In this document: one piece after another, positions 1-39,385 of the stretch | Position numbering within the stretch: the stretch's first letter is position 1 | Layout of the letters: every line of letters starts with the position of its first letter | Assembly: GCA_973895155.1 (NCBI GenBank) | Contig: OZ316894.1 | Coordinates: 14,523,680 to 14,587,679 of the forward strand | Source of the DNA: Marsupella aquatica | Lineage: Eukaryota; Plantae; Marchantiophyta | Reading direction: 5' to 3' | Length of the DNA stretch: 64,000 nucleotides | Notes under the pieces: generated by a model | What the model was told of the DNA's origin: nothing | The model's database searches: none | The model's input: only the letters and a program-made list of their open reading frames with translations | Made by a program: the position numbers and the translations under genes

Positions 1-3000
1 CCTTTTGACACACCCATCTCAACAACTTACCCAACGACCAAAGGGCATCACGAAGATCCTCACTACCCAATCCAATAATAGCAATTGGAATAACATGTTG
101 CAATAAGCGATGATAATCATGGGTCTTCAAGAAAGCTGGCCATTTTGGAGAGTCAAGTCCACCAAATGCCTTGCGAAGATTGGCACCATACCCTGTAGGA
201 AATCGCATAGACCCTATGCGTTTGCGAAACTCGGTCCGCTCACCTCGTGTCAAAACCCAAGGAGGATGAATAGTAAGGGGGGCATTATCGGGATCCATAG
301 ATGGCCAAAAACCATGAGGGCCATGCATCCCCATCTCTTCACAACTCTCTCTCCAGTTGTTGTCTTTCTCTCCATGTAGGTGGCGAATCAAGGACCTCCC
401 AACATTTCCCTCAATGTGCATAGGGTCAAATAAATGGTTAAGTGGCATCTCAGCCCAATAAGGCAGTTGTGACAATGCAGACAAACAAGTCATGCCACAC
501 CGGGCATATTGCAATGGGTCATCTGGATTAGATACTCTCTCCCATACCTCTTTCCAATATGCAGGATCTTTTGGAATAGGTTGTGGTTGTCTGTCTGGTT
601 GGCCATCCTTAGTGTCATATAAAAAGGGGTCTCTCCTCCAATCATGGTCTGGAGGGAGGTACTTGGTGTGACCAATATACACTATCTTCCTCAAGGTCTT
701 TGACTTTGGCCGCGCTATTCCTTCCAAATCAGGTCCACAAGTTGGGCAAGCTCGATATCCTGATGTGGTCAGGCCAGAAATATATCCAAACCCTGCATAT
801 AAATATATATCCCATGCATAAGTAAATAAGTTTATTAAAAGATATATGTGCTTCTAGCTAACTCAATACATAACAAAGTATGCTAGGTACGGTTGCCTAG
901 CTATGGGAAGGGATAATTTAACAAAGATTCATACCTGGAAGATCATGTATGGTCCACATAAGAATGGCCTTCAACTTAAATTCTTGACGTAAGCCCCCCG
1001 TTTGCACTCGACCATCATAGCAATCCACACCACTCCAAAGCTTTTGTAGCTCCTCAATCAATGGTTGCAAGTACACATCAATTTTTTTCACTTGCTTAGG
1101 ACCAGGGATAATCATGGAAAGGAGCAAATGACCCTTCTTCATGGACATCCATGGAGGGATGTTGTAATTAGTAAGGACCACTGGCCATAGTGAATATGGT
1201 TGGGCCTTACCTGCTAGTGCAAATGGGCTGATGCCATCCGCTGCCAATCCTAGGCGAACATGACGTGGGTCAGTTCGGAACTCACCCCATCTCTCCTCCA
1301 CAAACTTGTTTGCAGGGGAGTCAACCATCATGCGCATGGTGGGTGGTTGTGAACTCATATCTGAGCGATTTTGGGAATGCCAAACCATATACTCAGCCAA
1401 CTCAGCACATCTATATTGGTGGCGCAAACGAGGTATAAGAGGAAAGTACCTCGTGACCTTCTGAGGAACTTTTCCCGTCAACATGTCCTCACGATACCTA
1501 GGCTTCTCACATGTAGGACATGACGTTGCATCTTTATAAGTACCTCTAAACAGAACGCAATCATTCACGCAAGCATGTATGACTTCGTACTGCAGACCTA
1601 TGGACTTCAACACCTTCTTTGCCTCTTTCCAAGAGTCTGGCAAGTTGTTTCCTTCTGGCAAGATACAATCATGCAATGTCCGAAAGAGATCATCAAGAAG
1701 TAGGTTGCTTGCTCCATGTCTTTGCTGCAAGTTCAACAACAACATTATTGCTGAAAGACGAGACAAGCGTGATCCATCAAATATCCGAGTTTGCGCATGT
1801 TGACGTGCTTCCTCCCACTGTTTGGAGGCTGAACTCCTTGAACCTTCTTGATGTGGAAGTGGGACCTCAATGTTCTCCCCATCAGCCATGTCATGATCAC
1901 CATCCTCTATGTCATAGAATTGGTGCATCAAGTCATCCATGGCCCTATCTTCATCAACTCTTGATTGGGAGGCATCTGGTTCCTGCTCTGGAACATCCGG
2001 ATCGTCATCTGGTGGTAGAGAGGCATGTCGCCAATCTTCCATGGCCTGCACAAGGTGTTGGCGCATAGCTCGTGGTAACACCCCAACATCCGGCTCAACA
2101 TATGCATTCTATCATACAACGCACAAAATAGATATATACGTTTGAGTTAGCCCATGGGTTCCTAAAAAAACTACAATATTCTTATATTACTTCAAAAATG
2201 GGGAATACACATATGTGCTAAGTGTGGCCAGATCGAATGCCCATCATGGGTGCGTTCCATTCATAGTCACAAAACAACTCATCACCCGCCCTAATGGTCC
2301 GTATGGCTACTGTCATAACATGATCATCCATATGTGTGACATAGTAAGGCGGAGTGGGTGGGCCAAAAATCTGAGCCCACTCTACATTAGGCTGGAGTCC
2401 ACTCCCTCTACCATGTGTACTATTGATGTACCCAGCTATGTTATCTGAACGGACAGGGTCCCCATCAATCATCCTACAATGCCAAGGCCTCCTTAGGACC
2501 TCATCTGGGTCTGAGTCCATCTGCAATGCATATACCCCCCAAGCTGGATGTTGGCGCAAGAGGATGTTCCAACTCTTGGATGTATACACAGGCCCAATGT
2601 AAGGGAAAAGGTGTTCCCCATCATAGCCACGACGCCAAGGCTTTGGAGGGACCTCAATGTCCTCCAAAGCAAATAAGCCTAACCCAACCTCCCCGCCAAG
2701 GGTCGATGCCTTCACTATCCATTGCCGACCCCATATATGTACAGGGATGTCAATGGCTAGGCCACGAGGAATCGCAAAACTCTCAGGGTCAAAATCCTTG
2801 AAGACACTGATTGCCTTTCCCGTCACATATGACAAGCCCAACCTCCCTTCAACTTCTATGTACTCCTCCCCTGGTGGAGGCATAACACTCCTTCTAAAGT
2901 GCTCATGGGATGGGTCTGTGTCTAGAACTACATGCTGTTGTCGATGTCTATGAGAATGTGGTCTTGTGCGTAGAACCCTAGTAGGGGGCGGTGCATCATC

Positions 3001-3521
3001 CCTACCATGCCCCAACTCTACCACTATGGGTTCATGAACAACATCTGCCAGAACATGTGCGGGGGTACATGATTGCTCGGGGTCTTCAACTGATGATGCA
3101 AGCAATTGTCTAGCACCAGCTAGGAATGCATCATGCCATAGTTGACTAGAGACCAATGGAGGACGGGCCCTACAACGCACCTATTCAATCATAAACAAAC
3201 AAAAATTAATACTTGTCTCCTAAAAGGTCTCAAACCAGCCAACTATTATGATAGTGTATCATATATAGCGGAGTTCATGTCAAGCAATACCTGGCGAGCT
3301 GAATATCCCGGTAAATCACCCTCATGTCGACCATAGTTTTCGATGTGTTCAATGGACTGCCACGCTTGACGAACCACCAGTCCTTTACATCTAAGACACC
3401 AGCATGGAATAGGGCCTAATGGAGGGGGTGCTCGAGGCTGTTGAGGGGGAGGAGGAATGTCCCCCTCAGAGGAAGACAAGTCAGAGTCGGAATCTGTATC
3501 CAAACTCTCAGAAGTCGACAT
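1..3521 (-). pseudogene. CACTA TnpD-like transposase (Transposase_21/DUF4218 type), multi-exon, decayed
   Basis: Exon 3521-3291 has the transposase-associated CWCLRC..H motif. The exon from 2108 has IHACVNDCVLF, RYFPLIPRL, RHVRLGLAADGISPF and LMWTIHDLP. Downstream fragments give LFDPMHIEGNV and KTHDYHRL. Confidence 0.88.
2218..3180 (-). CDS. SET-domain (lysine methyltransferase-like) ORF/exon nested in the CACTA transposase gene
   Basis: Open 320-codon frame with GLGLFALEDI, FPYIGPV, IDGD..NIAGYINST (NHS-like), PNVEW and AIRTIRAGDELFCDYEW (ELxxDY). Confidence 0.8.
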   Translation of the reverse strand: MRCRARPPLVSSQLWHDAFLAGARQLLASSVEDPEQSCTPAHVLADVVHEPIVVELGHGRDDAPPPTRVLRTRPHSHRHRQQHVVLDTDPSHEHFRRSVMPPPGEEYIEVEGRLGLSYVTGKAISVFKDFDPESFAIPRGLAIDIPVHIWGRQWIVKASTLGGEVGLGLFALEDIEVPPKPWRRGYDGEHLFPYIGPVYTSKSWNILLRQHPAWGVYALQMDSDPDEVLRRPWHCRMIDGDPVRSDNIAGYINSTHGRGSGLQPNVEWAQIFGPPTPPYYVTHMDDHVMTVAIRTIRAGDELFCDYEWNAPMMGIRSGHT

Positions 3522-4586
3522 TGTCTGCCAATTACACACAAACAAGTCTTTACCAAAATGCAAGATTGATTCATCACCCTAACTTGAGGTAAACCCAAAC
3601 AGGAAATATATAGTATGTTAATAATTTGCAGTGTTGGACTTAATTAGTACCTGAATGATATCCGCGCTCTACAGTGCCTACTAGGCTCTAAGCCTTAGAC
3701 TATATGCTAAGGCCAATCCAAAAAAACCTGCACATACAGGCTAGGTGGGGAAGTTGAAAGATGAGATGACATACATGCAAACCTAAGTAACAAACCAATA
3801 ATTAATGAAATTAATAAAAATCAATGATGAGTTGGATGTCCAATTATAAACTCCCACAAGTAACGCATATATCATGTCAAATATTTCCAATACATTTTGG
3901 AGGATCATATATGTCATACCTTTTGGATGCGCGTACTCTCGCTGTGCATAATGCATTGGCAAAAATAAACCCTACTAAGAAAACCAAGGAAAAGCAACGA
4001 CCCGACCCTCCAAAAACAAAAAATACAAAACGGCACAAAACGGCACTAGAGTGTTAATTTAATTTGTGACTTCTTATAGTCCCCAAAAGTTGCACCATGC
4101 ATATAGCATTGCCTCATGGTCAAAATGGGAATCATTTAAAATCAAACTGGAAATAGATCTGGGTACATACATTCAATGATCATCCATACCCACCAAAAAA
4201 TAGTGTGCTAGCTTTGTCACGGCAACTGTACGTTGATATGCCCGTTTTGCGCCGCACACCTAATAAGCCCACAATATAGCATAATTAACCCCCAACTAAC
4301 ATAAAGGGGGTCATTATAGTATACATGGGATCCAAATGCCAAAGTCCAAATGCCAAGGTCATGCAATTCACAAACCATCAGAAAATACATTGGGAGGGTT
4401 AAGTCCGATACTTTGGAGGAGGGGTCCGATACTAAGTCCGATTGACCTAGAATTGGAGTTTCCGATACAGAAAGTATCGGACGTTATGTATTTTGGGTTT
4501 TTAGGTCACCCGACTAAAGTGCGAAGGCACTCTAGTCGGGAAAAGCATCGGGAGCATTTCACGATACCTTTGCGGAGCTCGTAGCG

Positions 4587-7507
4587 ATGGAAGGGAATGC
4601 GGGAGGGATGGGAGATGGTGCCGGGCCATCAAGCAGCCATGGTGAAGTCATGGCTCAATTGTTTAGGGAGAAGGTGGGGCTCTCGCCGGAGGTTGCATTG
4701 CAGGTAGCCCAGCTCTTTCAAGGACTGATCGACAGCTCCCAGAAGGTAGCCATCACTGATGCAGAAAAAGCTTTCCAAGCCAGACTCGAGGAGGAGAGAT
4801 TGCAGAGGAAGAGGAAACGTAACACTAGGGAGGACGAGAGAGAGAGAGGCCAGTGGAAGCCCTATCACCAAGACAAAAGGAGAAGAGCCTAAGGAGGGAG
4901 GCTCGGGCTGCAGAACGACAGAGAATTCAGGAGGAACGAAAGAAGGCAGAGGATAGGGCCAAGAGGCCAAAATTGTTTCTGAATGAGGGAGGTGCTCCAC
5001 TCTCCAGGAGTTATCGTTTGTTTGGGAGTCAAGTTAGGCAGATTGTGAGGTCTCATTTTGGCCCGATGGACTACTGGGGGAAGAAGAAGCAGGATGAGAG
5101 ATTTCGAATTTGAGAGCAAATCAAAGAGAGATTTTCGAATGGGTCGTTTGTGGACGATCGATTCTTAAACAAAAAGATCTCAGTCTCACTTGCAGACATG
5201 CAAAATCATGTACGAGAGAAGATGCGAAAGTACCTGGCTGAATGCAAACTGGATGAGGAGGTGATCAGGAAAGGGGGAAGCCCAGCTGGTGAGATTCCTG
5301 AGAATGCTTGGTGTGCCTGGCTTGAAGAAGAGTTGCAGGTTCGAGCTTGGCAAGCCACACAACGCTAGGAAGCTGAAATTCAAGCAGCTCAGAAGAAGAT
5401 TGAACAAGGAGAGATGGTGAATACTGCACCCATGCATCAAGAACTTGAAGAATGGTCAGCAAAATCAGCCCTGCTTGGAGACCCACCATCCTGGCTAATG
5501 AAAGCTCTGCTGAGAGTAACAAAGAGGCCAAAGGTTACTCACAGAATGGGGCAAGGCGGATCACAGCGTCTCAAGGCCGATTTTGTAAGTGCTCCATTCC
5601 CCTCCTCTCCATGCATTCCTTCAGCAGCATTCCTCCTCCCTAATCACCTGAGGCCAATTGACGAATGCCTAACCCTTCCAAACCCGGGACAGGTCTTTGT
5701 ATGCCCGTAGGTCGCTCGATCATGCCTTAGTTTTTTTTGCTTTCGGCATGTAAGGTCCGATTCTAGTCCGATCCTCTAAGTATCGGATGCAGCATCGGAC
5801 AATAAAAAAGAATCGGAACTGTCGAGGGTACCGATTCTATTAGTATCGGACATATTCAAATTTTTGAATAGTTTGTGCATGAACGGCTAAGTGTTCTTAT
5901 GGGTCTTTGACGGTGAAGGGTTTATATAGGTGTTTAATTAGGCCAGGGTAGGGTTGCTATAATTGACCTTAGTATTGGGGGTGGCATATGGTTTGGGTGT
6001 GTAGGAGAAAGAGCACGGACGACCATTGTTGCCGGCAGAGAGAGCTGGCAAAGGAGCATGGTGCTCGGGCGCTAAAGATTCACATGGACGACATGTTGGC
6101 CTCGGTAAGTGCGGATATTAGAATGATTTGAAAGATGGCTTCATGCTGGTACGTATGTTGCGGAATGACATATGGATTGGAGATTGTTACTATGTGCAGG
6201 ATGAGTCAGGGGGTGAGGAGGACTTGGAGAGTGAGGAGGATGGTGAGGGGGAGGAGGATGAGGAGGATGCGGAGGATGATAGTGCTTCAGAGGGGAGTGT
6301 GGCCGAGGCTCCAGTACGAGGTTCTACTGGTGCACGTGGCCGGTCAGGACCCCGAGAGAGTGGACGTCACCAGTCTGGTTGGGGTGTAGGTGGCTCCACT
6401 CGCCGGATGGAGCATAGAGCAGGTGATATGCCTCCTTCTCGTCAGAGATTAGCCAGTAGGAGTGGACGGAGTGAGTCCCGGGTTCCAGCCACAGTAGGTC
6501 ACAACCGAGGGGTTCATAGTGAGTCTGGAGTTCTAGCCACAGCAGGTGGTCGAGTGAGGACTGGCCCTGGTGTTGTACCAGGTGGGTCTCGACAACGGGC
6601 TGGTGTTCATACTGGTCATGTCGTTGGCCAGTCAGGAGGTTCCGGCCGTAGTGGTGGAGGTGAGTCTCGCCCTGAGGGGGGTAGTGGTGGAGTTGTTGCA
6701 CCTCGTCAGTTTAGGGCTGGCCCTGGTAGTGTACCAGCTGGTTCACGACAGTCCGGGGGAGGCCTTGGTGGTCATGTGCCCACACCATCTCCTGTTCATA
6801 GTGGTGGTGTAGGCATCCAGTCTGGAGGTTCCGGCCGTAGTGGTGGAGGTGAGTCTCGTCCTGAGGGGGGTAGTGGTGGAGTTGCTGCACCTCGTCAGTT
6901 TAGGGCTGGCCCTGGTAGTGTACCAGCTGGTTCGCGACAGTCCGGGGGAGGCCTTGGTGGTCATGTGCCGACACCATCTCCTGTTCATAGTGGTGGTGTA
7001 GGCATCCAGTCTGGAGGTTCCGGCCATAGTGGTGGAGGTGAGTCTCGCCCTGAGGGGGGTAGTGGTGGAGTTGCTGCACCTCATCAGTTTAGGGCTAGCC
7101 CTGGTAGTGTACCAGCTGGTTTGCGACAGTCCGGGGGGGGCCTTGGTGGTCATTTGCCCACACCATATCCTATTCATAGTGGTGGTGTAGGCACCCAGTC
7201 GGGAGGTTCCCGTCATAGTGGTGGAGGTGAGACTCGGCCTGAGGGGGGTAGTGGTGGTGGTGCTGGAGGGGCTTCTTTCCACACTTGTGTCGGGGAAGGA
7301 GTGCCTTCCCATGGTTCAGGCGCATCTGGAGGTGGGGGAGTACCAGAGATTGCTTCTGCACCTCATCCACATGACGATGGAGGCAGATCAGGTAGCCACG
7401 ACCATGATGTGCTACCTAGTGTGTCAGCGGTAGAGACTCATAGAGCAGAGCAACCTAGTCATTCCCGTGTGAAGAAGAGGAAGACGCGACATAGCTTGTA
7501 TGGATAG
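4587..7507 (+). pseudogene. CACTA second ORF (TnpA/Ptta-like) with Gly/Ser-rich tail
   Basis: Frameshifted, charged helical fragments at 4587-5585 ending in HRMGQGG..L..DF, followed by a GTAAGT donor at 5586. Later exons are acidic and Gly-rich. Divergent from the transposase inside the element. Confidence 0.55.
6629..7262 (+). repeat. 189-bp (63-codon) tandem repeat, about 3.3 units
   Basis: Units begin at 6629, 6818, 7007 and 7196 (CAGTCnGGAGGTTCC...), encoding QSGGSGRSGGGESRPEGG... Confidence 0.92.
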
Positions 7508-8302
7508 TGGACTAGGTAGACATGTATAGATCTAGTACCAGGCTAGCGAGGTGGATAGTTGGAGGGCATTATGTCCATTTGATATGCCCAGCCTTTAGCA
7601 TAGCTAGCACTATGCATGGAGATGTTCTCCATTTTTTGTACTTTTGCCCTCGATATTTCATTTTTGTATATAAGATATAGTTATGCCGTGTCATGCCCGG
7701 GTTTCAAGGTACATAGTGTGCAATCAAAATTGATAGTCTCTCTTGACTAAATGACCTCTCTAAACCCTAGATAAAAACTCAGTTAAAGAATTAAATTGCA
7801 CCCCAATTAAACCCCCAATTAGCCCCCCATTTAAAATAGGCCCAATCAAGCTCGCCAAATAGTTTCCGGGTAGATACCGATCCATATCCGATGCCACAAT
7901 CATCGTACTTTTCCATCCCAAACGTATCGCAAAGTCCGATTCTACTATAATCGCAATTTCCGTTCCAAATAACATCGGACATTTCCGATGTTAAACCAAT
8001 CGGTCATTTCCATGTCCAGAATATCGGTCTAGAATCGGACGCCTCCACTAACAGAAAATGCGTGAAACAGACATCCGATTACGCGGGAATCGGACATAGT
8101 GTTTCCCGACAGTTTAGGCGACGGAACTCCCGAATGTTTTGGTATCGGTAGTTCCGATTAGTTTCCGATTGTCATTTTCCGATAAAATTTATATTGGAAA
8201 TTGCGATTCTTTTGGTATCGGACAGGTGAGATTTCCGCGTCGGATTTCCTGAAGGCGTCCGATCTAAATACAATCGGTAAAATGCCTCAAAATGTACTAG
8301 TG

Positions 8303-10063: not shown

Positions 10064-13000
10064 ACGGAGGCATAGAGATAAAGGAAACTCTAATAGCCTT
10101 CCGAATGGGCTTTTACGCCATTAAGATACAGACATTCCATGCAGATACCAATGCACTAAGCCATACCGAGATATGGCACCGCCGCCTGGGGCACCTAGGC
10201 ATACAGATGTTCCACAAGATCATTAAGGACACAAAAGGGATACTGACCACTGTACACCCAACCTCAATGAAAGCCCAATTCCTAGCCTGATCACAAGGCA
10301 AACTGACAATGAAGCCATCACCATCCACCACAGACAAGCAAATCCCACGTTTCCTAGAACGAATCCATGCAGATGTATGTGGCCCTATAGATCCCCCCAG
10401 TGGCCCTTTCCGTTTCTTCTTGGCAACTATCGATGCCTCATCCAAGACCCAAGTATCCCTCTCTCCACACGCAATTTGGTTTTCTCCTGACTATTAGCCC
10501 ACATCCTGCGATTAAAAGCACAATTTCCCGACCACCCCATCAAGACATTAAGAGTTGATAATGCTGGGGAATTCACATCCCATACATTTGACGACTTCTG
10601 CATAGCAACTGGGATAGAAGTTGAATACCCTGTAGCTTATGTTCATTTTCAAAATGGGATAGCCGAATCCCTGATTAAAAGGCTCCAAACCATAGCAAGA
10701 CCACTACTAATGCAGACAAGCTTACCATCATCAGCCTGGGGCCACGCCATCCTACATGTTGCGGCCCTATTAAGATATCGACCATCCGCTTTCAATGCTA
10801 GCTCACCTCACCACCTAGCATTGGACGCACCACCCAACTTGGCTCACCTCCGCACATTCGGCTGCCAAGTCCTGGTACCCATCATGGGACCCAAGAGAAC
10901 TAAACTTGGACCCCAAAGGCAAAAGGGTATCTACATTGGATTTGATTCTACATCAATCATACGCTATTTAGAACCCACCACTGCCGATGTATACAAGGCA
11001 AGATTTGCCGACTGCCACTTCTATGAGGAAATATTCCCAAAACTCAGTACAGAACTGATGAATACAGAAACAATAAACAAGGAGCTTGCATGGCAAATTA
11101 GCTCACAATTTTGGAACGACCCGAGGACAGCCCAAGCTGACACGGAGGTCCAACGGATACTACACCTTACCAGAGTAATTAGAGAGCTCCCCGATGCATT
11201 CGCGGATGTGGCGAAGGTGACCCAATCCCATGTTCCAGCCATGAACGCCCCATCCAGGATAGATATAGACACTCAACCAGCAGCAACAATCGAACCAAGG
11301 AGAAAAAGGGGACGTCCACCTGGAGCCGGGGACACAACCACGCCAAAGGAGGACACCAGCACATACCCCATCAGCACCCGGGCCCCAACAGCCCCTGGGA
11401 CCTGCACCGATGGAAAATGAGGAGATTGCCATCAATTACAACTACACCGGCCAAATCAGGGATAGAGCATCCACACCTATAGATAATGTATTTGCCCATC
11501 AGATTTCACAAGAAATAATGGACGACTTACCTGATCCAACAACGATAAAGGAAGCCCGAGAACAACCTGATTGGCCAGAATGGCAATTAAGCAACCATAA
11601 ACTCGGAGCTAGACTCACTAATATCACGCCAAGTATTCGGACCCATCAAGCCTGCCCAACCTGATACGCACCTGACCGGCTACAAATGGACATTCATTAA
11701 GAAGCAAAACGCCCAGGGAGAGATTGTGAGATACAAAGCCCGCCTAGTAGCCAAGGGATTTACCCAAATCCCAGGCAGAGACTACGATCTAACTTATTCT
11801 CCCGTTATGGATGTCATTACATATAGATACTTGATTGCATTCGCTATTCATTACAACTTAACGATGCATCAACTCGACATTGTCACCGCTTACTTATATG
11901 GCCACCTGGAAAATGTTATATACATGGAGGCCCCCCCTGAATTACTAACCAAAGTGGCCTACCATCTTCAAGGGGAGCAGAAACAACAAGAGAATACAAC
12001 AGACAGTGGAGGCCCTTTCGGCCATACAAACAAGGCAGTACTACGTACCACCGCCAAAGTGATTGGATGGAAAGCATCAGACCAGAAAGCACTCGCCGCA
12101 AGAACTCGATTTGCTGTCCAAGTCCTGAGATCTATGTATGGCTTGAAACAAAGCGGACATACCTGGTATAAGCACTTCAAAAACGAGATGCTGGAAATGG
12201 GATTTAAGACATCCAATCTTACCCCCTGCCTATTCATTAAACAAGAGGGAGATGAAATCATAATCGTAGCCATCTACGTGGATGATCTCAACCTATTCGG
12301 CACAACAAAGATCCTGCAGGATACAATCAGAAAACTGAACAGAGTATTCAAGACCAGGGATTTAGGCAGAACTGCTTTCTGCCTCGACCTACAGTTCAAA
12401 TATCTCCCTCAAGGAATACTCCACCAATCGACATAGACCCGCCGAATGCTGAAGCAATTCAACATGCACATGGCAAAATCAGTCAGATCTCCCATGGACC
12501 TTCGGTCACTGGACAGAGACAAAGATATATTTCGCAAAAGAACAGAAGGGGAGCCACTACTTGGCTCCAAAAAGCCCTACTTGTCAGCAATAGGCGCACT
12601 GCTCTTCCTGGCATCTCAAACTCGCCCGGACATTGCTTTCGCAATTAACCTATTGGCCCGCCATAGCTCATTACCCACCATCAGACATTGGAATGGGATC
12701 AAGCAAATCATGCGCTATCTGAACGACACCACGGACCTTGGACTTCTTTTCCTAACAAGACGGACTTCACACTATCCGGATACACGGATGCAGGATACTT
12801 ATCCGACCCCACCGATGCGAAGTCATAAACAGGATACATCTTTATGATAGGACCTACAGCAGTATCGTGGAGGAGCATGAAACAGACCTTGACTACAACC
12901 TCTTCAAACCACTCAGAGATTATAGCTCTCTATGAAGCAAGCCGCGAATGCCTCTGGCTACGTAACATAATCAATTACATCCACGAAACCACAGGTATAC

Positions 13001-15568: not shown

Positions 15569-17262
15569 TCACCAACACTGAGGACACAACCATGATCCAC
15601 TAGGAAGCACCTGCAATGATGGTGTCAAACATGACATGTGCCATCCTCTAGAACACTTATCACAAATCAACATAGTAGATGCTCCCTGAGCAGATCCACA
15701 CAACATACATTTCAAGCTAGCACGAACATGTGCCAAGCTTGGATCTACTATACCATCAATGTTGGGAAGGTGACATGGTGCACAGTTGTGCACATGATCC
15801 TTCCAAACCATACCATTGCGTCCCTCCAACATCAGGACACCAAAAGGCAACACTTCACGCACACGTAAGATTGTCCGGCCTACGGTCACATCAAGTGTTG
15901 TGGGTGTTGTCTGCTACAAATAAACATAATCACTAGGATGAAATTGTCGAATGCTTGCACGGTAACCTCCTCCACGAATAGTGGCATACCTCAAAGTATC
16001 ACGATGTTGGGCAATGGCAAGGTTGTCAAAAGCCATGGGCATCACTCTCTGAAATACCCGTGCTCTCTCTGAACACACCTTGACCCAAACATCAGGATCA
16101 TCCAAGTTCACAACTGGTGCAGCATCACGACAAATAGCTGCTGGCAAATCTGGCTCTCTACCATAGAGCAAAAAGTAAGGTGAGAAGGATGCAAGTGATG
16201 CTTGCCGACTTAAACGGTAGCCCATAGCTAACCAAGGTAGCTGGAGATCCCAATCTCTCAGATGACCAACCTGCAAGCCATACTTACGCAATCCTCTCTT
16301 CACAGTTTGCACAACTCTCTCAGCTAATCCATCTGCCTCAGGATGATCATGAGAGGTAGTACGATGATCAATCAGAGCTTGTTCACACAAACTCTCAAAC
16401 TCTCCATGGAGCTTAGTTCCCTGATCAGTCAACACCTCAGCTGGTGCTTCAAAATGACTGAGTACACGATCCAAAAATGTAGCAGCAACTCCTCCACTGG
16501 CTTTATCTAGCAACGCCACTTAGTCTAGCTCAATCCACTTAGAGAAGTGCTCCACCATGACCAAAACATACCGATTATGACGTTGGGTAAGAGGTAATGG
16601 ACCAGCAAAATCCAAACTCCAATGATATCCCAAACCCATGATTGGCAACGGGTGCAACTAGGGAGTGGGAGCATTAAATGATGCTCTCACTCTGTCACAT
16701 ACCACACACTTAGCTATCAACTGCTAGACATGAGTGTGCATACCATGCCACCAATACTGTGTCTGCAATAAGCTATAAGTGCGCTTCACACCAAAGTGAC
16801 CCAACTCCTCGTGTGCATGTCGCACCAAATGTACTCGTTGTGATGGTTTTGGTACCACTAACACCCTACCATCATGCAGTACTCTCAAAAGATGGTTTCC
16901 CTCCCATCGAAACCTCTTGGCTCTCTGTAGAACCCTGTCACGTTCTTTGGCATCGACACTGCCAACAATAGAACCACTGCGCAGATATTTCAACACTCTC
17001 ACATCATTGTAAATATCTTGTTGTCCAGAAGTTACCTCACCAACATCCACATCTGAAGACTCATCATCCACTCCATCCAATGAGGTAGAGTCCACAGATC
17101 CACTGTATGTTGGCACCCAACAAAGAAAGGCAGATGCATGCCATCTTGGCACCATCTCCTTATCTGACTCATCATGCCATCTGACTCCAGTCTCATCTGG
17201 CTGACTGGTACATGGATTGCGGCTTAATCCATCTGCATCCAAGTTCACTTTCCCAGGCCTAT
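15569..17262 (-). pseudogene. Gypsy pol 3' part: RNase H end, integrase, C-terminal PHD finger
   Basis: RPGKVNLDADGLSR, HEELGHFG, VLTDQG, HPEADGLAERVVQTVK, FSPYFLLYGREP; PHD CMLC..MLICDKCSRGWHMSCL..PSGSWLCPQC. Confidence 0.9.
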
Positions 17263-20200
17263 CACTAGTACATTTTTGGCACTTTTTCGATACTCAAAAC
17301 ACGCGTTTCTCAACACGCCCGATACTAAACACAACAGAAAACGTCTGATACTCCCAGCTACGGAACTTCTGATACTACTAACATCAAAAATTATTATCCG
17401 ATATGTTTTGTATCAAAAACTTTATCCAATACCCCGCATATCGGACAATGTCCAAAACATCCTGTATCGCAAATTGAGAGCCGACATGTTTTTCAGACGT
17501 CCGATGATAATAGTATCGAAAGCTAATTCCGATAGGTTTGGTTTTGGACATTTACCAATACAAGTATTATCGGACATATTTTTGCGATACTAGTTACAAC
17601 GGAAATCATTTGCGAAGGCTGAGTTATCGGTTACTATCCGTTGAAATTGCTATCAGACCCCTCCTCGACTGCGGGCTTAAGCGTCCGATTTGTGGAGTAT
17701 TGGATAGTGGCTTCCGATTGTTATAGTATCGGAAAATCCGATACTTTGAGGATGGGCTCAGGGGTCTCACTATATGGGGACCTCCCCATCGTCTGCGACG
17801 TTTTTAGGCCTTGGACCCCCTAAAATGTAAGAAAAAAAATTTATTTTTTAACCCCTATAAAGTTGGAATATTCTTGGAATATTCTAAATTTTGGATTAAA
17901 AAGACCCTAATGTTCTTTTAAGTCTCAAAATTGGATTTAAAAGACCCTATTGTTCTTCTACAAAAATTCTTAAGTCTTCCCTTAGAACCAATAAAATGAC
18001 CCTATCCTTCGTCGCACGTGATATGCCATTTTTGTGGAAGTGAAACCCCCGAGAGGATGGGAAGGGGTTTTTTGCTTTGGCAGTACTGATGTGTGTCCGA
18101 TATGTTTCCGATGTTATTTGAATGGGATATGGTATGGGACTTTAGTGTTTTACAATGTCTAGGTTGCATGGAATTAATGGATTCAGATATGGGGCATACT
18201 TTAAGCAATAGATATGTATACTGCATGAAATTGTGGACAATGAGAAAAATTGTAGAATGCCGATAAAAAGATAGTGCTGGTAAAAATATACATGAAGATG
18301 GTGGGGTCTACAATTTATACTAACTCGTGGGGGGTATGTCTCTATCTTCCACTACAACTACATTGGGTCTCTCTTGGACTATGGACCGTGATCTGGGAAT
18401 ATACGACATGACAATGGACCACTTGGGGTCATTGGGATAGGGTAGGTAAAAGCATTGCTCAAGGTGATGTGGGAAGGCAAAGGGATCTGAGGACCTCCAA
18501 TTGGAACTGATGACACTATTTGCGGATGTCTTCAAACGAGTAAAACCGCATGCATCATCTTCACAAGTACGATTGTGGCCTACAAGATTCATCTTGAACC
18601 ATTTGCACTTGAATACCACTTCCTCCAAAGTAGTATGTGCATGGTACTTCACTGTTAGGATCTCCTCAATCTTCCCATAATGGGCCACGATGGAGCGAAT
18701 GGGATTCATGTCTGACATGCTACTCTGGGAATCTTGGGTGAACCAACCCATCACCCCACAATCCTGTGTAGCTGCCCTCTTCTCATCAAGTTGTTCCACA
18801 CGAAAATGTCTCCCCTTTGACCACATGGCAGTCCGAGTCATGACTATAAGTAGTGGACCATGAACCAAGGTACAAAGTTTATCTGTCACGTTTGGGTAGT
18901 GTAATACACTCTCCCCGGTACCCACCAGGGCATCCACTTCTAACAACTTCTCCTTCGTGTATGGGTGAAACTTGGGAAATAACCGTGGGCGTCGACTGTT
19001 TTGCTTCTCCTCCTCATAAAATGTTGTCCACTCCCCGACAACCTCGGGTGATTTATACAACATAAATGTTGTGAGCTATAAACGCTCTGCTAAGCCTATG
19101 AGACGCTCTCCAGATGCCCCAGTGAGTCTATCATCCTCGTAGTCAGCCTCTCGTGCCGCCTCATCTATCCATCCCCTAGGAGCACTAGGATCTAGTGTGG
19201 CAACTATGTTTGTACATTAAAACATACTCTCTGCTCCAAGATGACGCTCCGCAATGCTACCTTCCACCCTAGTGCGATTAAAGACATATGACTTCATCAC
19301 CCCCATATAACGCTCTACCCAATACATCCATTGACAATGTACTGGGCCTGCAATTGCAACCTCGCGCACTAAATGTATGAGGAAATGAACCTGACCATCA
19401 AAGAATGAGGGAGGGAGTGCCTTCTCCAACTTGCAGACAACCTCTACTCCAAATATCTCCATAGCAACAATGTCATCCTCCTGTACCTCCTTTTGACATA
19501 CCCATCTTAAGAGCTTACCCAATGACCAAAGGGCATCACGAAGTTCCTCACTACCCAATCCAATAATAGCAATTGGAAGAACATGTTCAAGCAACCGATG
19601 ATAATCATGTGTCTTCAAGAAAGATGGCCATTTTGGAGAATCCTCCCCCCCAAATGCCTTCCGAAGATTGGTACCATAACCTATGGGAAACCTCATCAAC
19701 CCAATACGTCTGCGAAACTCAATGCGCTCTACCCTTGTCAAAACCCAAGGATGGATGCTAGGGGGAGCACCAGGGGGTCCAAAGATGGCCAAAAACCCAA
19801 AAGACCATGCATCCCCATCTCCTCACAACTTTCTCTCCAATTGTTATTTTTCTCCCCATATAGATGGCGAATCAATGATTTCCCCACATTCCCCTCAATG
19901 TGCATAGGGTCTAACAAGTGATTAATGGGCATATCTGACCAATATGGCAATTGTGACAATGCAGACAAACGGGTCATGCCACATCTGAATAATGGTAATG
20001 GATCACTCGGATCCTAAACTCTCCCCCATACCTCTCTCCAATATGCTGGATCCTTCCGCTGAGGTTGAGGACGAATATCAGGTTGGCCCTCATCAGTATC
20101 ATAAAGGAATGGATCACTCCTCCAAGGATGGTCTGGTGGAAGATATTTAGTATGACCAATGTAAACAATTTTTTGCAGAGTATATACTTGACTTGGGCCT

Positions 20201-21917
20201 GGCCACCCCCTCCAAATCGGGTCCACGTGTAGAGCAAGCTCGATAGCCTGATGTTTGCAATCCATAAACATATCCAAACCCTGCCCAGTGCATAGAAAAC
20301 ACATTCATAAAATAAGGTTCATCAAGGCAAAAATCTGCATAATTGCAATTAAATACAAGGTTTAGGTACTAGAGGAAATAAGGGTTTACCATACCTGGTA
20401 AATCATGCATGGTCCACATAAGGATGGCCTTTAGAGTAAATATGCGGGATAAACCTCGTGTGTTGTGACGTCCATCATAACAATCCACTCCTCTCCACAG
20501 TTGTATCAACTCATCAATCAATGGCTGCAAGTACACATCAATCTTTTTAACTTGCTTAGGACCCGGAATAATCATGGAGAGTAGTAGGTGACCTTTCTTC
20601 ATGGCCATCCAAGGAGGGATGTTGTAGTTTGTCAACACTATTGGCCACACCGAATATGGTTTGGCTTTTCCTGTCAATGCAAAAGGGCTGATACCGTCTG
20701 CTGCCAAGCCTAGTCGAACATGTCGTGGGTCAATTTTGAACTCTCCCCATCTATCCTCTACAAATTGATTGGCAGGAGAGTCAACCATCATCCGCATGGC
20801 ACTAGAGGGTACAGCCATATCAGAACAATTTTGTGAGTGCCATACCATCATCTCAGCCAACTATGCACATCGGAATTGATGTCGCAATCGAGAGATAAGA
20901 GGAAAGTACCTCATAACCTTTTGCGGTACCTTCCCCGTCAACATGTCATCACGGTACCGTGGCTTCTGACATTTAGGACATGTAGTGGCATTTTCATGCT
21001 CACCCCTAAAAAGAATGCAATCATCCACACATGCATGTATCACCTCATACTTCAGGCCAATGGACCTCAACACATGTTTAGCCTCTTTCCAAGAGGCTGG
21101 CAATGCGTTGCCTACTGGCAAAATACGATCATGCAAGGTACGGAAAACATCATCCAAAAGTAGATTGCTTGCCCCATGTCTTTGCTGCAAGTTGAGCAAC
21201 AACATTATTGATGAGAGCCGAGATAACCTACTCCCCTCGAATATGCGAGTACGGGCATGACGTTGCGCCTCCTCCCATTGCTTGTCTTGGGACCCCCTAG
21301 AAGGATGTGGATGACTAGTCCTTTCATGGGTTGAACCATTGTCCTCCAAACCAATGTCATTGTGATCATCATAGAATTGGTCCATGAGCTCATCCATGGC
21401 CCTCTCCTCATCAAGATGGTCTTGGATAGGATCATCACCATCATGTTGTACCCCATCCTCTTGCCTTTGCGGTTCATGCCCACGGTTGGCCACCATGGCC
21501 TCAACAAGGTGTTGTCGCTAGCTCGTGATATTACCCCAATATCAGGCGTTACATATTGATTCTATCATACAACATCAATTAATTAATCTCATCAACACAT
21601 GCACTGCTGAACAAAATCATTCTCATGTAAACATGTAAAATACTGACATATATATATATACATGTATGTAAGTCCAAGAAACTATCATGGACGACAATGC
21701 AAGGACAATTTTGGTGCATCCCACTCATACTCACACAATAACTCCTCACCAGCTCTAATGGTCCTAACAGCTACTGTCATGATATGGTCATCCATATGTT
21801 TCACAAAATATGGATGTCTAGGTGGACCAAACATTTGAATCCACTCTACATTAGCCTCCAAACCTCCATCTCTACCTGTGGTACTATTGATGTACCCTGC
21901 TAAATTACCGTTCCGAA
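17263..21917. mobile_element. CACTA element 2 (same family as element 1), truncated by Mutator-like copy A
   Basis: CACTAGTACATTTT terminus at 17263 interrupts Gypsy pol; TCCGAT/ATCGGA subterminal motifs run to ~17745. Confidence 0.9.
18320..21561 (-). pseudogene. CACTA TnpD-like transposase (DUF4216/DUF4218/Transposase_21), decayed
   Basis: IHACVDDCILF, RHVRLGLAADG, LMWTMHDLP, LDPMHIEGNV, PPSFFDGQVH, WMYWVERYM, VFKCKWF; clear paralogue of 1-2108. Confidence 0.9.
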
Positions 21918-21927
21918 GGGCATCACC
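21685..21927 (-). pseudogene. 3' remnant of the SET-domain exon in CACTA-2
   Basis: GDALRNGNLAGYINSTTGR...NVEW...DDHIMTVAVRTIRAGEELLCEYEW, homologous to the 3' part of 2218-3180. Confidence 0.82.
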
Positions 21928-22597: not shown

Positions 22598-25500
22598 CTA
22601 TAAGTCCAGAGAATTCTGCCTAGCTAGAATGAGCCTCACCTCACCTACAGTCAGAATTGGCTGACTAGCCAAAGTTGAATCCACCACATCTAGTTTTAGG
22701 ACGTTGGTATACACCCAATAGAGATGCTTGCACGACATGAAGGGCCTACCATGAGAATGGCGATGATAGAAGTCCTCACAAGAACAACATGGGAAAATGC
22801 AAATATGTACCCAATAAGTGTTTGCCGTGCGAAGTCTCTCTTGGGTTTGGATCTGAAATTGTTTGCCCCAAGAGTTCCCGATAGAAACATCAAATTGTTG
22901 AACGAGGGTCATCGACTCCTTGTTTGCAGATTCAATTCTTTTGTTGTGCCCTTGCAAAAGATTTGAACGTGGGATTGTATTTTTACCATTCCTGCTCCAA
23001 AGGCGGATATTTGGCTCAAGGAGATTGATTTTCTCCGGGAAAAGGTTCACATTGATTCGCAAGTCAAAAGGAGATGGAGCAGCCTGACGTCCAGCCTCTG
23101 GATTGACAGCAATCCCTTGCTGAGTCAGGAATTGGACCTTAGCCTTAGAAAGATTAGTTCCTTTCAAAACGGGCAGGCTATGAGGAAATGGGGGAAGATT
23201 CACCACATTACGACGGGGCCGGCTCTTATAGCATGCACTATTGGGACAAAACCAAATCATCTCAGGGTGTGGTTCTCCCCTGAACACGCGATATCCTTTG
23301 ACAACAATGCCAACTACACCATCCATTGACGGGTAACCAACCTTTTTAAGACGATTGCGACAGTCATCTCGATCCAATTTTCCACCAAGAGATCCATTAC
23401 GCTGAGGCCCTGCACCATGTCTCGTCACTCTTCGTAGGTGCCACGCCCCTGGTCGCACATCTGTCTCCAACACAGCTGAGTCATGGACAACCTTTTGGAG
23501 GTTGGGAGGTGCAGACCTTTTTGGAGGTTGGGAGGTTGGGAGGCTGCAGACGACCTTGTTGACCTCCTCCAAGGCGGAGTACTCCAATGTCTGCCTTCTT
23601 CAATTTCACTTTCTGACAGGTCCACAACGCCAATGTCATGGTGAATAGGACCCGATGCAACGGGGGAGAATTCAGTCTTGTTTAAGTTTTTCCTTTTCAT
23701 GCCTCGAGTATTTGGTGATGTTACAAGAATAGTGTCATGCCAATGGGAGTCTTGTGCCGAGATGTTCCCAGAGGCTTGACCTTTCCTCTTCATAGACTTT
23801 GTGGTAACATCCCCATTGAGAGGGCCACTCCTTTCCAGGTCGAATTCAGCCGCACCGGAAAGAAGCATATTGGAAGCATCTTGGAAAAGTTTTGAAGAAC
23901 CTGCCTGGTCTGCCGAACGGAATGCCAATTCCCAAATTGTAGGTCCGGTTCCTCGATTAAGACCTCTCTTATACGCCGTATACACAACAACTTGTGAAAG
24001 AGCCCTATTTTGATCCATCTCACATGCTTCAAATAGACCAGCCTTTTTCTTAGTTTGCCAAGCCTTCATTATGGAATGTGCCGCCTCTGAAGTAGTACAG
24101 TTAGGAATCATAGCGCTTTCCTCTACGCTTTTGTTCTGCATAAAACATTTGGAGCACAGTTTAGGAAATATGGCTTAGTCACTGCATTCAATAAAGAAAC
24201 ATTTGAACCAAATCATTTGGTTAGATTTACGGGTTTAATCAATGCCAGCGCCTGGCGCTACCACCATTCACACTAGAATATGGACAAATACGAGTAACAA
24301 GTGGTTCATAAAACTAGCGCCGGGCGCTAGTATCAAAACTCAGGCAAATATTGGAGTGGAACTAGGACACGGAAGTCACTGGAAATAATGATAGCGCCAA
24401 GCGCTAGTATGACTTTGTTTGATTCCTTCTTTTAAAATGGTGATTCGTGTGTTTACTTGTTTATGGATGTTGAAACTCACCAAACAAATGAAATTTCCCC
24501 ATTGACGCCATCGGACCACCCACCACGCAAGCCAACCTTGGAGCATCCGAAGCTTTCCTGGAACACAATTCCCTGATCTCCACCACATGTCGATTTCCCT
24601 GGAAATTATGTAGACTCCAAGAAATGTTGACGCGTTCCTTAAAGAGTCCCACATCTTCCGGTGCTCTTCTCGTTTTTCTTCCAATACTCCTTTAATTGAA
24701 TGACGATGAAACGATTGATAGAAGTGAAACGCATCCGATCGCTCCTTTTCCGGGTTAGGATGTCCACCAAAAAACATGTTCCGAACAACATTCCATCCAG
24801 CTTGAGCATTGTCAGCCATGAATCCATGGATTACTACGTTGTCTAACCCATTTTCATGGCAAACCTCAATCATCGATTTCCAGGCTTTTTCTAACGACTC
24901 AGAATCTTCAGCTTTCAACTCACATGTGAAGATTGTGCAAAGAGCACGGTAATTGTGATCATAAACGTGAGTGCTAAAAGTTATCCAATCCTTGGTCATT
25001 CTCCTCATCACATCAAAACTAACCCACGCGCCTTCTAGTCAACCTCTAGGTTGCATTTGGCGCAACAAATCAACTCCAAATCCGTGCCCTTTTACTGTCA
25101 TTTTGAAAATATGCGGTCGCTCCTCCTTACAGCCTTGACCTGGCAGCATGTAACGTTGTAGAAATGGAAAGTTTATGCATTTCTGCATTTCCACAAGAAA
25201 CTCTAACTCACCTTTACCTTTTTGGTCTTGCCGAACACTCCAAAAAAGAGATGCAAACTTTTGAGGGGTCGAAACAACCATTAACGACTCCCAAATTTCT
25301 CTTTCCTCCGATTCTCTGATGTCATTGTTGGACACACAGAGAGCCTTCCTTAAAGATCCAGTTATGGCATTCTTCATACCTGATGGTGTGGCAGACGATG
25401 TAGCTTCATGTTGCTTCTTTATGAACTCATGAGCAATATTTTCCGCACCTCGAGAAAAAACTTTACGACTGGGATGCGCATGATTTCCGACATGCACAGC

Positions 25501-26399
25501 AAGACGCGACATATGTTTACATGTATCCGCATCGAGAAGTAATTGCGGGTACATATAAAAAGCATAATTGCTGAACAAGCTTCAGTACAAAAGGGCAATT
25601 GTTGGTAGTAGTGAAAAACTACTCCACCCTCCTCAATAATCTTTCCCACGGTATGTGGCCCCGCAAGTTTGGGTGTCCCATCCCAAGCTTTTGAATTTCT
25701 TCTTCTCTTCCGTAGCAGATAATCACATTTCTGATTTCGACATTCGAGTGCACCGGTACACGTCACTTTACCAAATTCCCAAAACTTTTTAGGTTGGACA
25801 TTCGTAGAAGTTGGAAATATCCGTGTCCAGAAGTAGCAGTCTTTAGGCCTGTCCATGTCACGGAGCCTCGAACCTTTTGATAGCAGACCTTCTGCGGGAG
25901 GCAATTCAAACACAACATTTCCATTGTATTTACTCGGTAGACAATTCACCTGCTCATGAAATCACTTGTTTGGATGAACCGCGACAGTTCACTATGGCCA
26001 GTTGATTTGAGAATGGCATCCATTGCGCTTCGATAGAAGGCCCTGGATTAGCCGATGTTTGCAAATCTACGGCTACCTCCTCCTCTTCACTCTCGGAAAG
26101 GTCAATGAATGGAACCGGATGTCTTTCATTCAGAACGGAATGTTGTCGGAGATTGATATGTATCTCTTTCCAGCGTTGAGGTGCCAAAATCTGACTCCAT
26201 CATCGATATCAAATAGTGTGTCATCTGTCTCCTCGCCAGATGCATGGTCTGGTTTGATGGAATGGATGTCATTGATGGCAACGTCAAATCTTCCACAAAG
26301 ATAGTTCTCACTAACCTGTTTGTACATGTCGGATGAACCTAAAGGGATGCTTACAATCTCCCCAGTATCAGGACGAAGAAGCACGACTGAATTAGACAT
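22598..26399 (-). pseudogene. GCM-like + MULE DDE + SWIM transposase (copy A); intron 24480-24136
   Basis: KVTCTGALECRNQKC...VHVGNHAHP (GCM/WRKY-like Zn module), WVSFDV, GFMADNAQAGWNVVRNMF..AFHFYQS, PNCTTSEAAHS, SWIM CSCEDF..CKHLYWV. Frameshifts present. Confidence 0.8.
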
Positions 26400-27294
26400 T
26401 GCGGGAGAATGATATTAATTTGATAAACAAAGGAACGGAGGAAATAGGAGAACATTACTCGACTTAAGTTAAGTAAACTCATTCTGAACCTCAGAAGATT
26501 ATTGTTTGTAAATGACAAAATGGGTACTAGTCGTTAGGTGCAGACACATAAATGTAGTTTGTCGTTTTGCCAACGACACTACTTACCGGTAACGTGCAAA
26601 AAATGCGATCAGATAATTATTAGCGCCCGACGCTACCATAAAGAAGTACCCGGGTTTCAACTTAGAAACCAGACTGAACATGCTAGCACCAGGCGCTATC
26701 ATTGGGGGACTGTCAAGTCAAAGAGAAATATTTTATTGATTTTGATGGAATTGCTGAAAAAATCAATAAACGTTTCATTTTGTTTTGGAATCGGTACTTC
26801 TTAGGAAAATACAAGGGGTATACATAGCTAGCGCCCAGCGCTGACATAATCTCCTCCCTGTCATCGTCATGTATGAGAGTATTTTTAGTGGTTTTTGATA
26901 CTAGCGTCGGGCGCTAGTATCGATGGAGATGACTTTGGTTTGCGCAACGGTTATATCTAACGGTAACATGTATGAACAAATTCCTTACTTTGTGTTGTTT
27001 TCTGTTAGATTGTTTAACAATACGTTCCCGTTCATTGCTGCATCCACAAATGACTTGAAAGTATACGTTAATTCTACTCATTTCAAACAGTCTCTGGCAC
27101 CTGTCTTTGTTTGGATTGGTCAGTGAGATTCTTTCAATCCTTCTTGTTCTACGTCACATGATGTCAACAGCACTATGATGGAAAAGTTTTAAAGGTTTTT
27201 TGTTGTTCTTTGTGTACGGTAATTTGTTTGGAGCGTGAGGGTAGAGACTGGCTCTGTGTCGTACAGAGACCTTCATGTATTGACATGCTCCACA

Positions 27295-30200: not shown

Positions 30201-31109
30201 AATTATTGCGATACTCCATACAGGGGAGTATGATCAGATTTCACAGGTCATCTCAACATGTCAAGAGTCTAAGAAATTCCAATGTTTGTGTACACATAAT
30301 GTTGTCATGGGGTTCCCCATGTACAAGGCCAAGTCTGATTTGCAGGTAAATCTATTCATCACACTTTCAAAGTTTTGCTAGCGCTAGGCGCTGCTCATTT
30401 TATGTAGTGCTCGATTAGAAATTTTAATCTTTTCCTAGGTACACTACTAATCATACTATTAATTCTTTGCTAGCGCCCGACGCTATTACAATTCTTTGGT
30501 CCTTACTTGTTCATGTTCCCTTTTCAGGTATTCACTTTACGTTTAGATATATTTTGTCGAGTATCATCCAAGGTGAAAGTCCCCAAGGATCCTAAGTTCA
30601 AACCTCTTTCAAGAGCAGAGGATCCCTCTATCACAAATCTGATCGGACTTCCATTTGCGAAGGTGGATACAACTCCAGAGCTTGAATTTGCCGAGAATGC
30701 CAGACTACATCCAGGGTTTATGCAGTATGTTTTGGAACTAATCACGTGTCCCAGAGATATTGTTCTGGATTGGGCTGTAGGTTCTGGGAGTACATTTGTG
30801 GCAGGTGATAATTGTGGTCGATTTGTAATTGGGCTTGAGAATAGGAAGGAGTTCGTTGAAACTACTTCAAAAATATTTCTGGACCTTCTAACTCCCAAAG
30901 TATCTGAGTCCAAAGCCCCTCCGAAGCCTGTGCTTGCAAAACGAAAGAGAGACAAACTTAAATCAATATTAAATTTTGACTCCGAAGATGAGAATGAAGC
31001 AGAAGAGGGGGATGAAGAAGAGGAGGATCCGAACATTCCTAGAGTGTCTTTAACCGGAGAAGATCCGGAATCTAATGGAGGGAGTGACAGCGAAGACTCT
31101 TCTGAGTAA
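27295..31109 (+). pseudogene. ParB/Sulfiredoxin-like domain + helical region + beta-class N6A/N4C DNA-methyltransferase-like domain (copy A)
   Basis: VRTL..IEKLKDSF...GY and MFLVFDGNHRLYSW (~27890-27932); VDAGFIYLPTG..W..FLLDDGIIAILH; HPGFMQYVLELITCPRDIVLDWAVGSGSTFVAGDNCGRFVIGLE. Predicted introns 28059-28184, ~29518-29644 (donor apparently mutated) and 30346-30527. Confidence 0.72.
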
Positions 31110-31723
31110 GAAACTACCGAGTAAGCTCATAAGCTAACCCGGTTTTTATTACGGTCGATTCCCTTCTTCTCTCTTTGATGTCACATTTTTTTTCCTTTTT
31201 TGCAAATATTTTGGCTGTTGACATCAAATCCAATATTCTCCTCCTCAGGTCAGACTGGAATCTTCGCTGGCGTTTCCAACTCAGACGGAAAGTAGCTAGG
31301 CGATATATTGAAACTCCCGAGAAACCATTTGTCTTACCTTCCTATGCTGAAAATGTTGCTAGAAAAGTTGACAGTGTGCCCTAAACTGGGAGAATAAAGG
31401 CTTGAGATTAAGGAGGGGGTCTGATAGAAAATTTATGCGGAACCGATTTGTGGATGATATGGCCAAGAGCGAATTTTTAGACATCGAGGCAGAATCTACC
31501 GATAGGTCCGAATCCCGTGAATCGGAGTGCTCGGATTAACTTGGATCTCTGTTGTTAATTTGGGTGTATTTTTAGTGCAACTATGCTAGCGCCGGGCGCT
31601 ACCCAAATGTATGCCAGAAATACTGTACAATAAAGATATTATATGTCAGTTGTAACCATGGAGTGTCCACTCAAAGTACTCTTTCTATTATAGTAGCGCC
31701 CGGCGCTACTATAATTGTATAAC

Positions 31724-38500: not shown

Positions 38501-38904
38501 GCGCTTCAAGGAACGAGAAGAAATGCTTGCAAAGAGTGCATCTTACCCACACCCATTTGAAGAGAATTGAAGCCTCTAAAAAAGAAGTCATGAGCGTCAT
38601 TGGAGAGAGAGAGATCACGAGTGGAAATGCATCGGGGAAACAGTTTTGTATCCGGACCCATGAACATGAGAGATCAGTCACCTCTTACTGGGTTCAGATA
38701 TGTTGTTTCCCATGTTGCTCCTACGAGGATTTCTACCGTCGGCATACTTATCGGAAGCCTTACATGCCTTGCAAACATGTGTATTGGGTGTTCAAGAATG
38801 TGTTCAAACTGGATGTGCACGATTCGACATTATGTAGCCAGCCAATTCTAACGTTGGGAGACGTCCGTTACATACTTGATAGGCAGTTGGGAACAAGAAT
38901 TTAG
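35505..38904 (+). pseudogene. GCM-like + MULE + SWIM transposase (copy B); intron 37083-37377
   Basis: SYNGNVVFELPP, CHHC..C..CPALMFY, GFHNHP, WVSFDV, FMMDNAQAGWNAIRSMF..FHFFQS, PNCTGSESRH, PCCSYEDF..CKHVYW. Confidence 0.8.
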
Positions 38905-39346: not shown

Positions 39347-39385
39347 CATATCTATTTACTATTTGCTATCACGGTGGTTATACCC

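Follow-up and report, generated by a model that had tools for sequence, protein, structure and literature searches.

The window, a 64,000-nucleotide stretch of contig OZ316894.1 of the liverwort Marsupella aquatica, contains a CACTA transposon (copy 1, minus strand) with a SET-domain exon nested ahead of its main transposase exon. The nested open reading frame (ORF) is a SET domain, and the exon is conserved cargo under purifying selection, not a decaying sequence. In the reading that we favor, and hold to be somewhat more than an even chance, a single exon with a Zn-like motif is spliced to either of two alternative acceptors, to give a Zn-SET protein or the transposase. Taken by themselves, the layout and both of its products are likely.

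According to this model, one pre-mRNA would have two fates that share exon 1. Splicing to the near acceptor (at 3180) would produce a 397-residue Zn-SET protein, a predicted lysine methyltransferase, from a transcript ending in a 109-nt tail; splicing to the far acceptor (at 2108) would remove 1,182 nt, including the SET exon, and produce the usual Zn-Tnp2 transposase. As both would come from one pre-mRNA with alternative acceptors, Zn-SET and transposase would compete. The weakest step is the next one, in which the shared Zn motif would bring the SET domain to element copies or to the transpososome. There it would methylate a lysine, favoring expression or movement of the element. Clusters of subterminal motifs at 4400-4500 and 5750-5860 are candidate docking sites, by analogy with the binding of clustered motifs by TnpA. 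We regard the broadest version of the proposal as doubtful: an old bryophyte CACTA clade with its own chromatin writer, in which a splice switch yields either the transposase or a Zn-SET protein that finds element copies through the N-terminal finger of the transposase and writes a histone methyl mark there. If true, a transposon would use an enzyme of its own, of a SET subfamily without a host counterpart, to set its histone state.

The CACTA/EnSpm assignment is based on a Tnp2-family transposase on two exons (PF02992, 140.8 and 39.5 bits), on DUF4216 in a broken sister element (copy 2, 73% identical to copy 1 over the aligned part), and on CACTA-beginning terminal repeats with subterminal repeats at the right end of copy 1 and the left end of copy 2. 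The terminal inverted repeat of copy 1 (CACTAGTACATTTT, minus strand) has its CACTAG end at 8302, and the element runs inward from there. Because the ends of the two copies share 14 bases and both lie in clusters of CCGAT/ATCGG words (17 in the 442 bases of 7861-8302 versus about 1 per kb elsewhere), we place the SET exon within a CACTA element. Copy 1 continues past the left window edge and the other end of copy 2 is lost; neither is two-ended in the window. Copy 2 holds the last 80 SET codons (21927-21685) and the same acceptor (TGTATGATAG/AAT, exon start at 21561), exactly as the original prediction had it, and has no further match to copy 1 upstream of about 21927. A third CACTA (40340-47433, minus strand), used as a control, has no SET exon: its single ORF (47433-43707) passes from the Zn motif straight into an acidic linker with no SET between, and it further carries Tnp2, DUF4218, DUF4216, and a weak Transposase_24 match. 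Parts of the stretch are found, in many variants, in contigs of five sequencing runs from three organisms.

The SET domain and its predicted activity

The SET domain that had been proposed for the nested ORF is borne out by a Pfam match to PF00856 (30.2 bits, cut-off 22.4) and by structure. An AlphaFold model built from 18 sequences (mean predicted local distance difference test score, pLDDT, 63; linker residues 35-96 unresolved) has 159 Foldseek matches in the PDB at E<=0.001, and all of the 41 best listed are SET proteins. In VIA the best structure match is SET8 (Z 10.1, root-mean-square deviation 3.2, 132 aligned residues). SET7/9, ASH1L, and MLL1 are tied with it, so no substrate follows from the fold and no histone methyltransferase subfamily (SET8, SET7/9, MLL/TRX, ASH1/NSD, SUV39/G9a, or E(z)) can be named. 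By sequence, the single protein has no PDB match at E<=10, and the best match with a profile has E 0.24. In the Atlas, the clusters nearest to the nested protein consist of small SET proteins from viruses and haptophytes. We do not claim a viral origin of the SET domain, as the Atlas and BFVD matches are 12-23% identical or unaligned.

The GxG motif, the Asn of the NH motif, and the catalytic Tyr of ELxxDY have established roles in SET lysine methyltransferases. All are present here and are kept in 83-95% of the relatives that cover them; across 88 relatives, the counts are 66/71 for G166, 70/74 for G168, 64/77 for N253, 60/63 for E301, and 56/59 for Y306, and Tyr217 is also kept in most. Two positions before Tyr306 stands a Cys, where the relatives mostly have a small or aliphatic residue; by the Phe/Tyr-switch rule, this would allow more than one methyl group. 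Judged by this residue conservation, the SET enzyme is probably active. Its substrate may be a histone, a possibility that we rate a little below even.

Alternatively, and at a clearly lower probability, Zn-SET would be active on a non-histone substrate, which could be a host silencing factor or one of the element's own proteins (the transposase or the second protein). The nested protein has no pre-SET or post-SET cysteine clusters, its nearest Atlas clusters are the small viral and haptophyte proteins mentioned above, and SET7/9, for which PDB titles name TAF10 and ER peptides as non-histone substrates, is among the tied fold matches. However, the histone enzymes SET8 and MLL1 match equally well, and published SET cargo of transposons is described, in the accessible text of those reports, as histone-methyltransferase-like, though without an assay.

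Less probable again is a SET fold without catalysis, which would bind a lysine or a partner while its exon also served as a splice sink limiting transposase. The near acceptor would indeed compete with the transposase acceptor, and the His of the NH motif is nearly fixed as Ser (71/76 relatives). This substitution is not decisive, since active PR-type SET domains also lack the His. Moreover, the glycines that bind S-adenosylmethionine, Asn253, Tyr217, and Tyr306 are kept in most of the 88 relatives, and a pure splice sink would not need a ratio of nonsynonymous to synonymous divergence (dN/dS) of 0.2.

One N-terminal exon and two acceptors

Exon 1 ends at a phase-0 donor (CAG/GTATTG). A 320-codon ORF begins at acceptor A (AG at 3182-3181), and one of 396 codons with Transposase_21 begins at acceptor B (AG at 2110-2109); the joins of exon 1 to each are stop-free. 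All coordinates, the donor phase, and the two in-frame acceptors of the original prediction were confirmed on the sequence. The two intron-like stretches have 31-32% GC, versus 47-52% in the three exons.

The label given earlier to exon 1, a transposase-associated Zn exon, is weak. The exon has a CxCxxC...H...G pattern, canonical transposases start with the same kind of Cys/His motif, and our own profile of 42 canonical transposase N-termini matches it at E 0.0024 (among 139 proteins). The transposase-associated domain itself (PF13963), which most canonical CACTA transposases carry, has no match at E<=1 in a Pfam search of exon 1 or of exon 1 of L001, a metagenome locus described below; it falls below the cut-off in the relative P0104 (14.9 bits) and in the plain transposase P0135 (17.3 bits). 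An Atlas search with residues 25-77 gave a best score of 0.77, with all matches under 0.8 and thus uninformative, and exon 1 as a query for longer proteins matched none of 43 candidates at E<=10. The last 30 residues of exon 1 are identical at 24/30 positions to P0001, a Calypogeia fissa gene model that joins the same Zn and SET exons.

Exon 1 is probably not the first exon of the gene. An AG lies directly ahead of base 3524, upstream of exon 1, and a predicted spliced leader (3727-3651) would precede it; a leader-like stretch with a donor is also found in L001, a likeness equalled by 3/500 shuffles. Upstream of the leader exon in L001 (40-90) there are three TCGCAAA words, on either strand, like the Arabidopsis TnpA-Spm1 motif CCVTCGCAAA.

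Junction A is supported indirectly, because SET-exon residues 2-29 are conserved ahead of the first ATG of the exon (codon 100; the leader exon has none) and because the phase-0 intron recurs in L001. These residues are identical at 15, 14, 15, and 20 of 28 positions in P0001, P0002, P0006, and P0012, respectively, against 17-25 of 70 in the linker. Both lines bear on the Zn-SET fusion proposed originally, which accordingly has indirect backing and would be read as a putative product. Junction B has likewise indirect support, since the 14 codons preceding the first transposase ATG are conserved (9/14 identical in copy 2) and canonical transposases begin with a Cys/His motif of this kind.

These observations also bear on an unlikely alternative, an independent gene nested in the element. 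The SET exon would then have a promoter and start of its own (the ATG at codon 100, or a short first exon so far unseen), and exon 1 would serve the transposase alone. The in-frame ATG does lie upstream of the folded core, and the main text of PMC13547354 describes changes between a spliced and a split-gene layout among Arabidopsis Spm families. However, residues 2-29 before that ATG are conserved, Met100 is not kept in P0001, P0002, or P0006, and the exon 1 donor lies only 110 nt from acceptor A in a phase-0 intron that recurs in L001.

Contigs of the five sequencing runs contain no joint that fits 3291>3180 or 3291>2108 among the 15 (of 24) examined; the run type is unrecorded and the result has no bearing on expression. 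Two contig pieces, X1 (2435-3371) and X4 (3118-3326), cross intron 1 unspliced. In six ORFs (P0010, P0013, P0067, P0070, P0071, and P0080), by eye, the conserved helix is preceded by an N-terminal hydrophobic stretch whose last residue is Gln, which fits read-through of a phase-0 CAG acceptor. For copy 1 we do not favor read-through from SET into transposase of the kind seen in the Riccia model P0082: the SET ORF ends at a stop of its own, no internal donor scores above 6.1 on a rough matrix (7.4 for the exon 1 donor), and a phase-0 donor at 2535 would cut the SET domain.

Relatives, selection, and points against the preferred reading

Copy 2 and L001 bear out the claim that the SET exon is a family trait. 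In L001, which is 51% identical, the Zn exon and the SET exon recur, separated by an intron whose donor and acceptor are again both in phase 0. L001 came from a metagenome scan with an alignment of the SET family, which gave at least four loci among at least 597 pattern matches listed; among the matches listed, L001 alone belongs to the SET family, and L002-L004 resemble ordinary bacterial SET genes. A scan of viral contigs gave 1/92 (27% identical), and a scan of prokaryote genomes for the SET family gave 0/74. Among named proteins, one from Calypogeia fissa comes closest, with 58% identity over 98% of the SET exon, in keeping with a liverwort host; a search of 1.84 billion representatives found 87 clusters (50% identity) at E<=0.001. 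By origin, 10 cluster representatives include 7 Riccia sorocarpa models and 1 from Calypogeia.

A Zn-like motif lies ahead of the SET-family region in one chain in P0057, P0060, P0078, and P0104 (by profile) and in P0086 (by pattern). In the Riccia sorocarpa-type models P0082 (strongly), P0088, and P0111 (E 0.002-0.004), SET continues into transposase sequence. In a 31-row transposase tree, one branch (99/94) separates the three SET-linked transposases from the other rows, among them the third CACTA, which has no SET exon. Two Calypogeia fissa models, P0100 and P0134, are distant members of the SET family with a different Cys-rich N-terminus, and from their sequences the family may also ride in other settings.

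Between copies 1 and 2, the SET exon has dS 1.19, dN 0.232, and dN/dS 0.195 (76 codons), and the transposase has dS 1.12, dN 0.211, and dN/dS 0.189 (375 codons). As these values are nearly equal, SET and transposase have diverged together under equal constraint, and the neutral decay that would have spoken against the original prediction is not seen. Compared with L001, dN/dS is 0.195 for copy 1 (204 codons, with dS near saturation) and 0.395 for copy 2 (70 codons). Among the best-supported 40 of 113 variant rows from four runs, 34 variants lie in the SET exon and 30 in its core, where 23/30 are synonymous versus 22% expected (32% if all were transitions; p<1e-6). Farther upstream in the exon, 4/6 of those listed change a residue, and one listed stop variant, at codon 316 in the tail, occurs in a single run.

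These selection tests, dN/dS equal to that of the transposase and the excess of synonymous variants, reject a recently captured host fragment (a transduplicate) drifting neutrally in an intron: CACTA elements often take up gene fragments, but the 87 clusters, the absence of a named host methyltransferase from the 20 representatives looked up (0/20, and likewise none for P0002, P0009, P0013, and P0014), and the lack of a PDB sequence match for the single protein make this very improbable.

Several points weigh against a CACTA element with two splice products. L001 is the sole other genomic locus obtained, and its contig stops 226 nt past the SET stop, with any transposase beyond its end; P0001 and the Riccia models are predicted gene models. 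The tree support is thin because two of the three SET-linked rows are near-copies, and the variants are the best-supported subset. Both junctions are predictions from genomic sequence, and the Zn label of exon 1 is a weak one, drawn from the CxCxxC...H...G pattern and our own profile. The 109-nt tail leaves little room for a SET 3' end. Without cleavage in it, the stop of the SET transcript would lie ahead of later introns, and by the rule of nonsense-mediated decay the transcript may be degraded. The fold model is of middling quality (the mean pLDDT given above). As to substrate and activity, SET7/9, ASH1L, and MLL1 lie within 1 Z of SET8, the NH-motif His is Ser in nearly all relatives, and the NH-motif Asn is replaced in 13/77.

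Other features of the window and comparison with known systems

The features of copies 1 and 2 are collected in the table. Broken ORFs at 4536-5710 and the Gly/Ser-rich ORF, all on the plus strand, lie inside the element and point away from the transposase. The Gly/Ser-rich ORF is likely a second gene of the element; for the plus-strand ORFs of 4536-7507, Pfam gave nothing above cut-off, and tblastn with 15 TnpA-like queries gave no credible match.

Table. Positions of features of the SET-carrying CACTA element and its sister copy in the window
Feature	Position	Strand	Details
Transposase exon 3	1..792	-	PF02992; open frame to window edge
Transposase exon 2 (Tnp2)	937..2108	-	PF02992; acceptor B to donor near 937
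AT-rich tail	2109..2217	-	109 nt, 31% GC; branch region of acceptor B, putative SET 3' end
Nested SET exon	2218..3180	-	320 codons; conserved helix, variable linker, SET domain about residues 127-308, stop TAG 2220-2218
Intron to acceptor A	3181..3290	-	110 nt, GT...AG, 32% GC; same phase in L001
Coding exon 1	3291..3521	-	231 nt, 77 codons; ATG first, acidic/Pro stretch, CxCxxC...H...G Zn-like motif
Predicted non-coding leader exon	3651..3727	-	77 nt, no ATG; AG/GT ends
Internal subterminal-motif cluster	4400..4500	.	5 words in 101 bases; ~700 bases upstream of leader exon
Internal subterminal-motif cluster	5750..5860	.	7 words in 111 bases
Gly/Ser-rich ORF	6122..7507	+	189-bp tandem repeats; ORF list and self-BLAST
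Terminal inverted repeat	8261..8302	-	14 identical bases at copy 2 end (17263); within subterminal motif cluster 7861-8302
Copy 2, broken sister element	17263..21927	-	SET C-terminal 80 codons, acceptor B, transposase with stops, DUF4216, far terminal repeat

Elsewhere in the window, an ORF at 30474-31109 (plus strand) matches the DNA methylase family PF01555 (32.2 bits, cut-off 26.7). It sits between two inverted units, 67-71% identical, that hold SWIM-like Cys/His ORFs (by eye; no Pfam match), and the region around it (22600-38900) may be a second transposon type with methylase cargo. The same Pfam family is paired with SET in the Plavaka gene PAG2, discussed below. At 47733-50597 (minus strand), just upstream of the third CACTA and on the same strand, lie ORFs that have BRCT domains (51 bits), matches below the cut-off to NSD-like PHD fingers, and a weakly matching F-box; they may be chromatin-reader cargo. 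The far end of the third CACTA may be marked by a CACTAG word at 39514. Fragments of Copia-like, Gypsy-like, and LINE-like ORFs are found, by eye, at 10491-12436, 15914-17293, and 58703-63998, and an imperfect palindrome of 100 bases, 84% self-complementary, at 39261-39360.

In maize Spm and in Arabidopsis EN/SPM3 and EN/SPM7, alternative splicing produces TnpD and TnpA, according to the main text of PMC13547354, and TnpA is described as binding clustered motifs and countering silencing (main text of 10.64898/2026.08.24.746577); neither main text mentions a SET domain. The present element resembles En/Spm in that one CACTA transcription unit would give a transposase and an accessory protein by alternative splicing. 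In En/Spm, however, the accessory protein is the DNA-binding TnpA, whereas here it is a predicted enzyme whose exon is nested ahead of the transposase body and shares the N-terminal Zn exon.

Transposon-borne SET domains have been described before. Plavaka PAG2 of the red alga Bostrychia, in the EnSpm superfamily, encodes a DNA methylase and SET (PF00856) and is proposed to modulate transcription, in the accessible text of 10.1101/2025.02.11.637652. Here too an EnSpm-superfamily DNA transposon carries SET; as described there, PAG2 is a separate accessory gene, a methylase-SET fusion, in another lineage and host, and no shared transposase exon is described. SET cargo is also reported in HarbingerS and MuDR of Phytophthora (as cited in PMC12730594), and the SET of proto-Helentron-Pi is described as a free, intronless, Clr4-like ORF (in the accessible text of PMC4067079). 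These cases share a transposon-borne SET with ours but belong to other superfamilies in oomycete hosts. SET8, SET7/9, and viral SET proteins have the same compact fold without cysteine clusters; the nested protein differs from them in its 16-29% identity over aligned residues with tied scores, in its family-specific N-terminal extension, and in having NS for NH.

SET cargo in transposons, including the EnSpm superfamily, is therefore already in print, and the shared-exon layout in a land-plant CACTA would be the new part. Our literature search, of sources other than Repbase Reports and in part through accessible text, found no publication of a shared-exon SET layout for bryophyte or land-plant CACTAs. 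The layout would explain orphan "SET domain-containing" liverwort gene models as transposon products. DNA transposons are reported to be enriched among H3K27me3-marked elements in the plants examined (accessible text of PMC11982613). Of the transposon anti-silencing factors, those that have been tested (VANC and TnpA) regulate in a sequence-specific manner, and TnpA requires host demethylases in the published text available. Like VANDAL with VANC, the present element would encode an accessory protein proposed to act on its own chromatin; VANC, however, has been tested and regulates a Mutator-like element in a sequence-specific manner, whereas Zn-SET is predicted from sequence. The present family is a land-plant case that is compact, conserved, and multi-copy and that would carry its own switch; it allows a direct test of whether a transposon writes its own histone marks.

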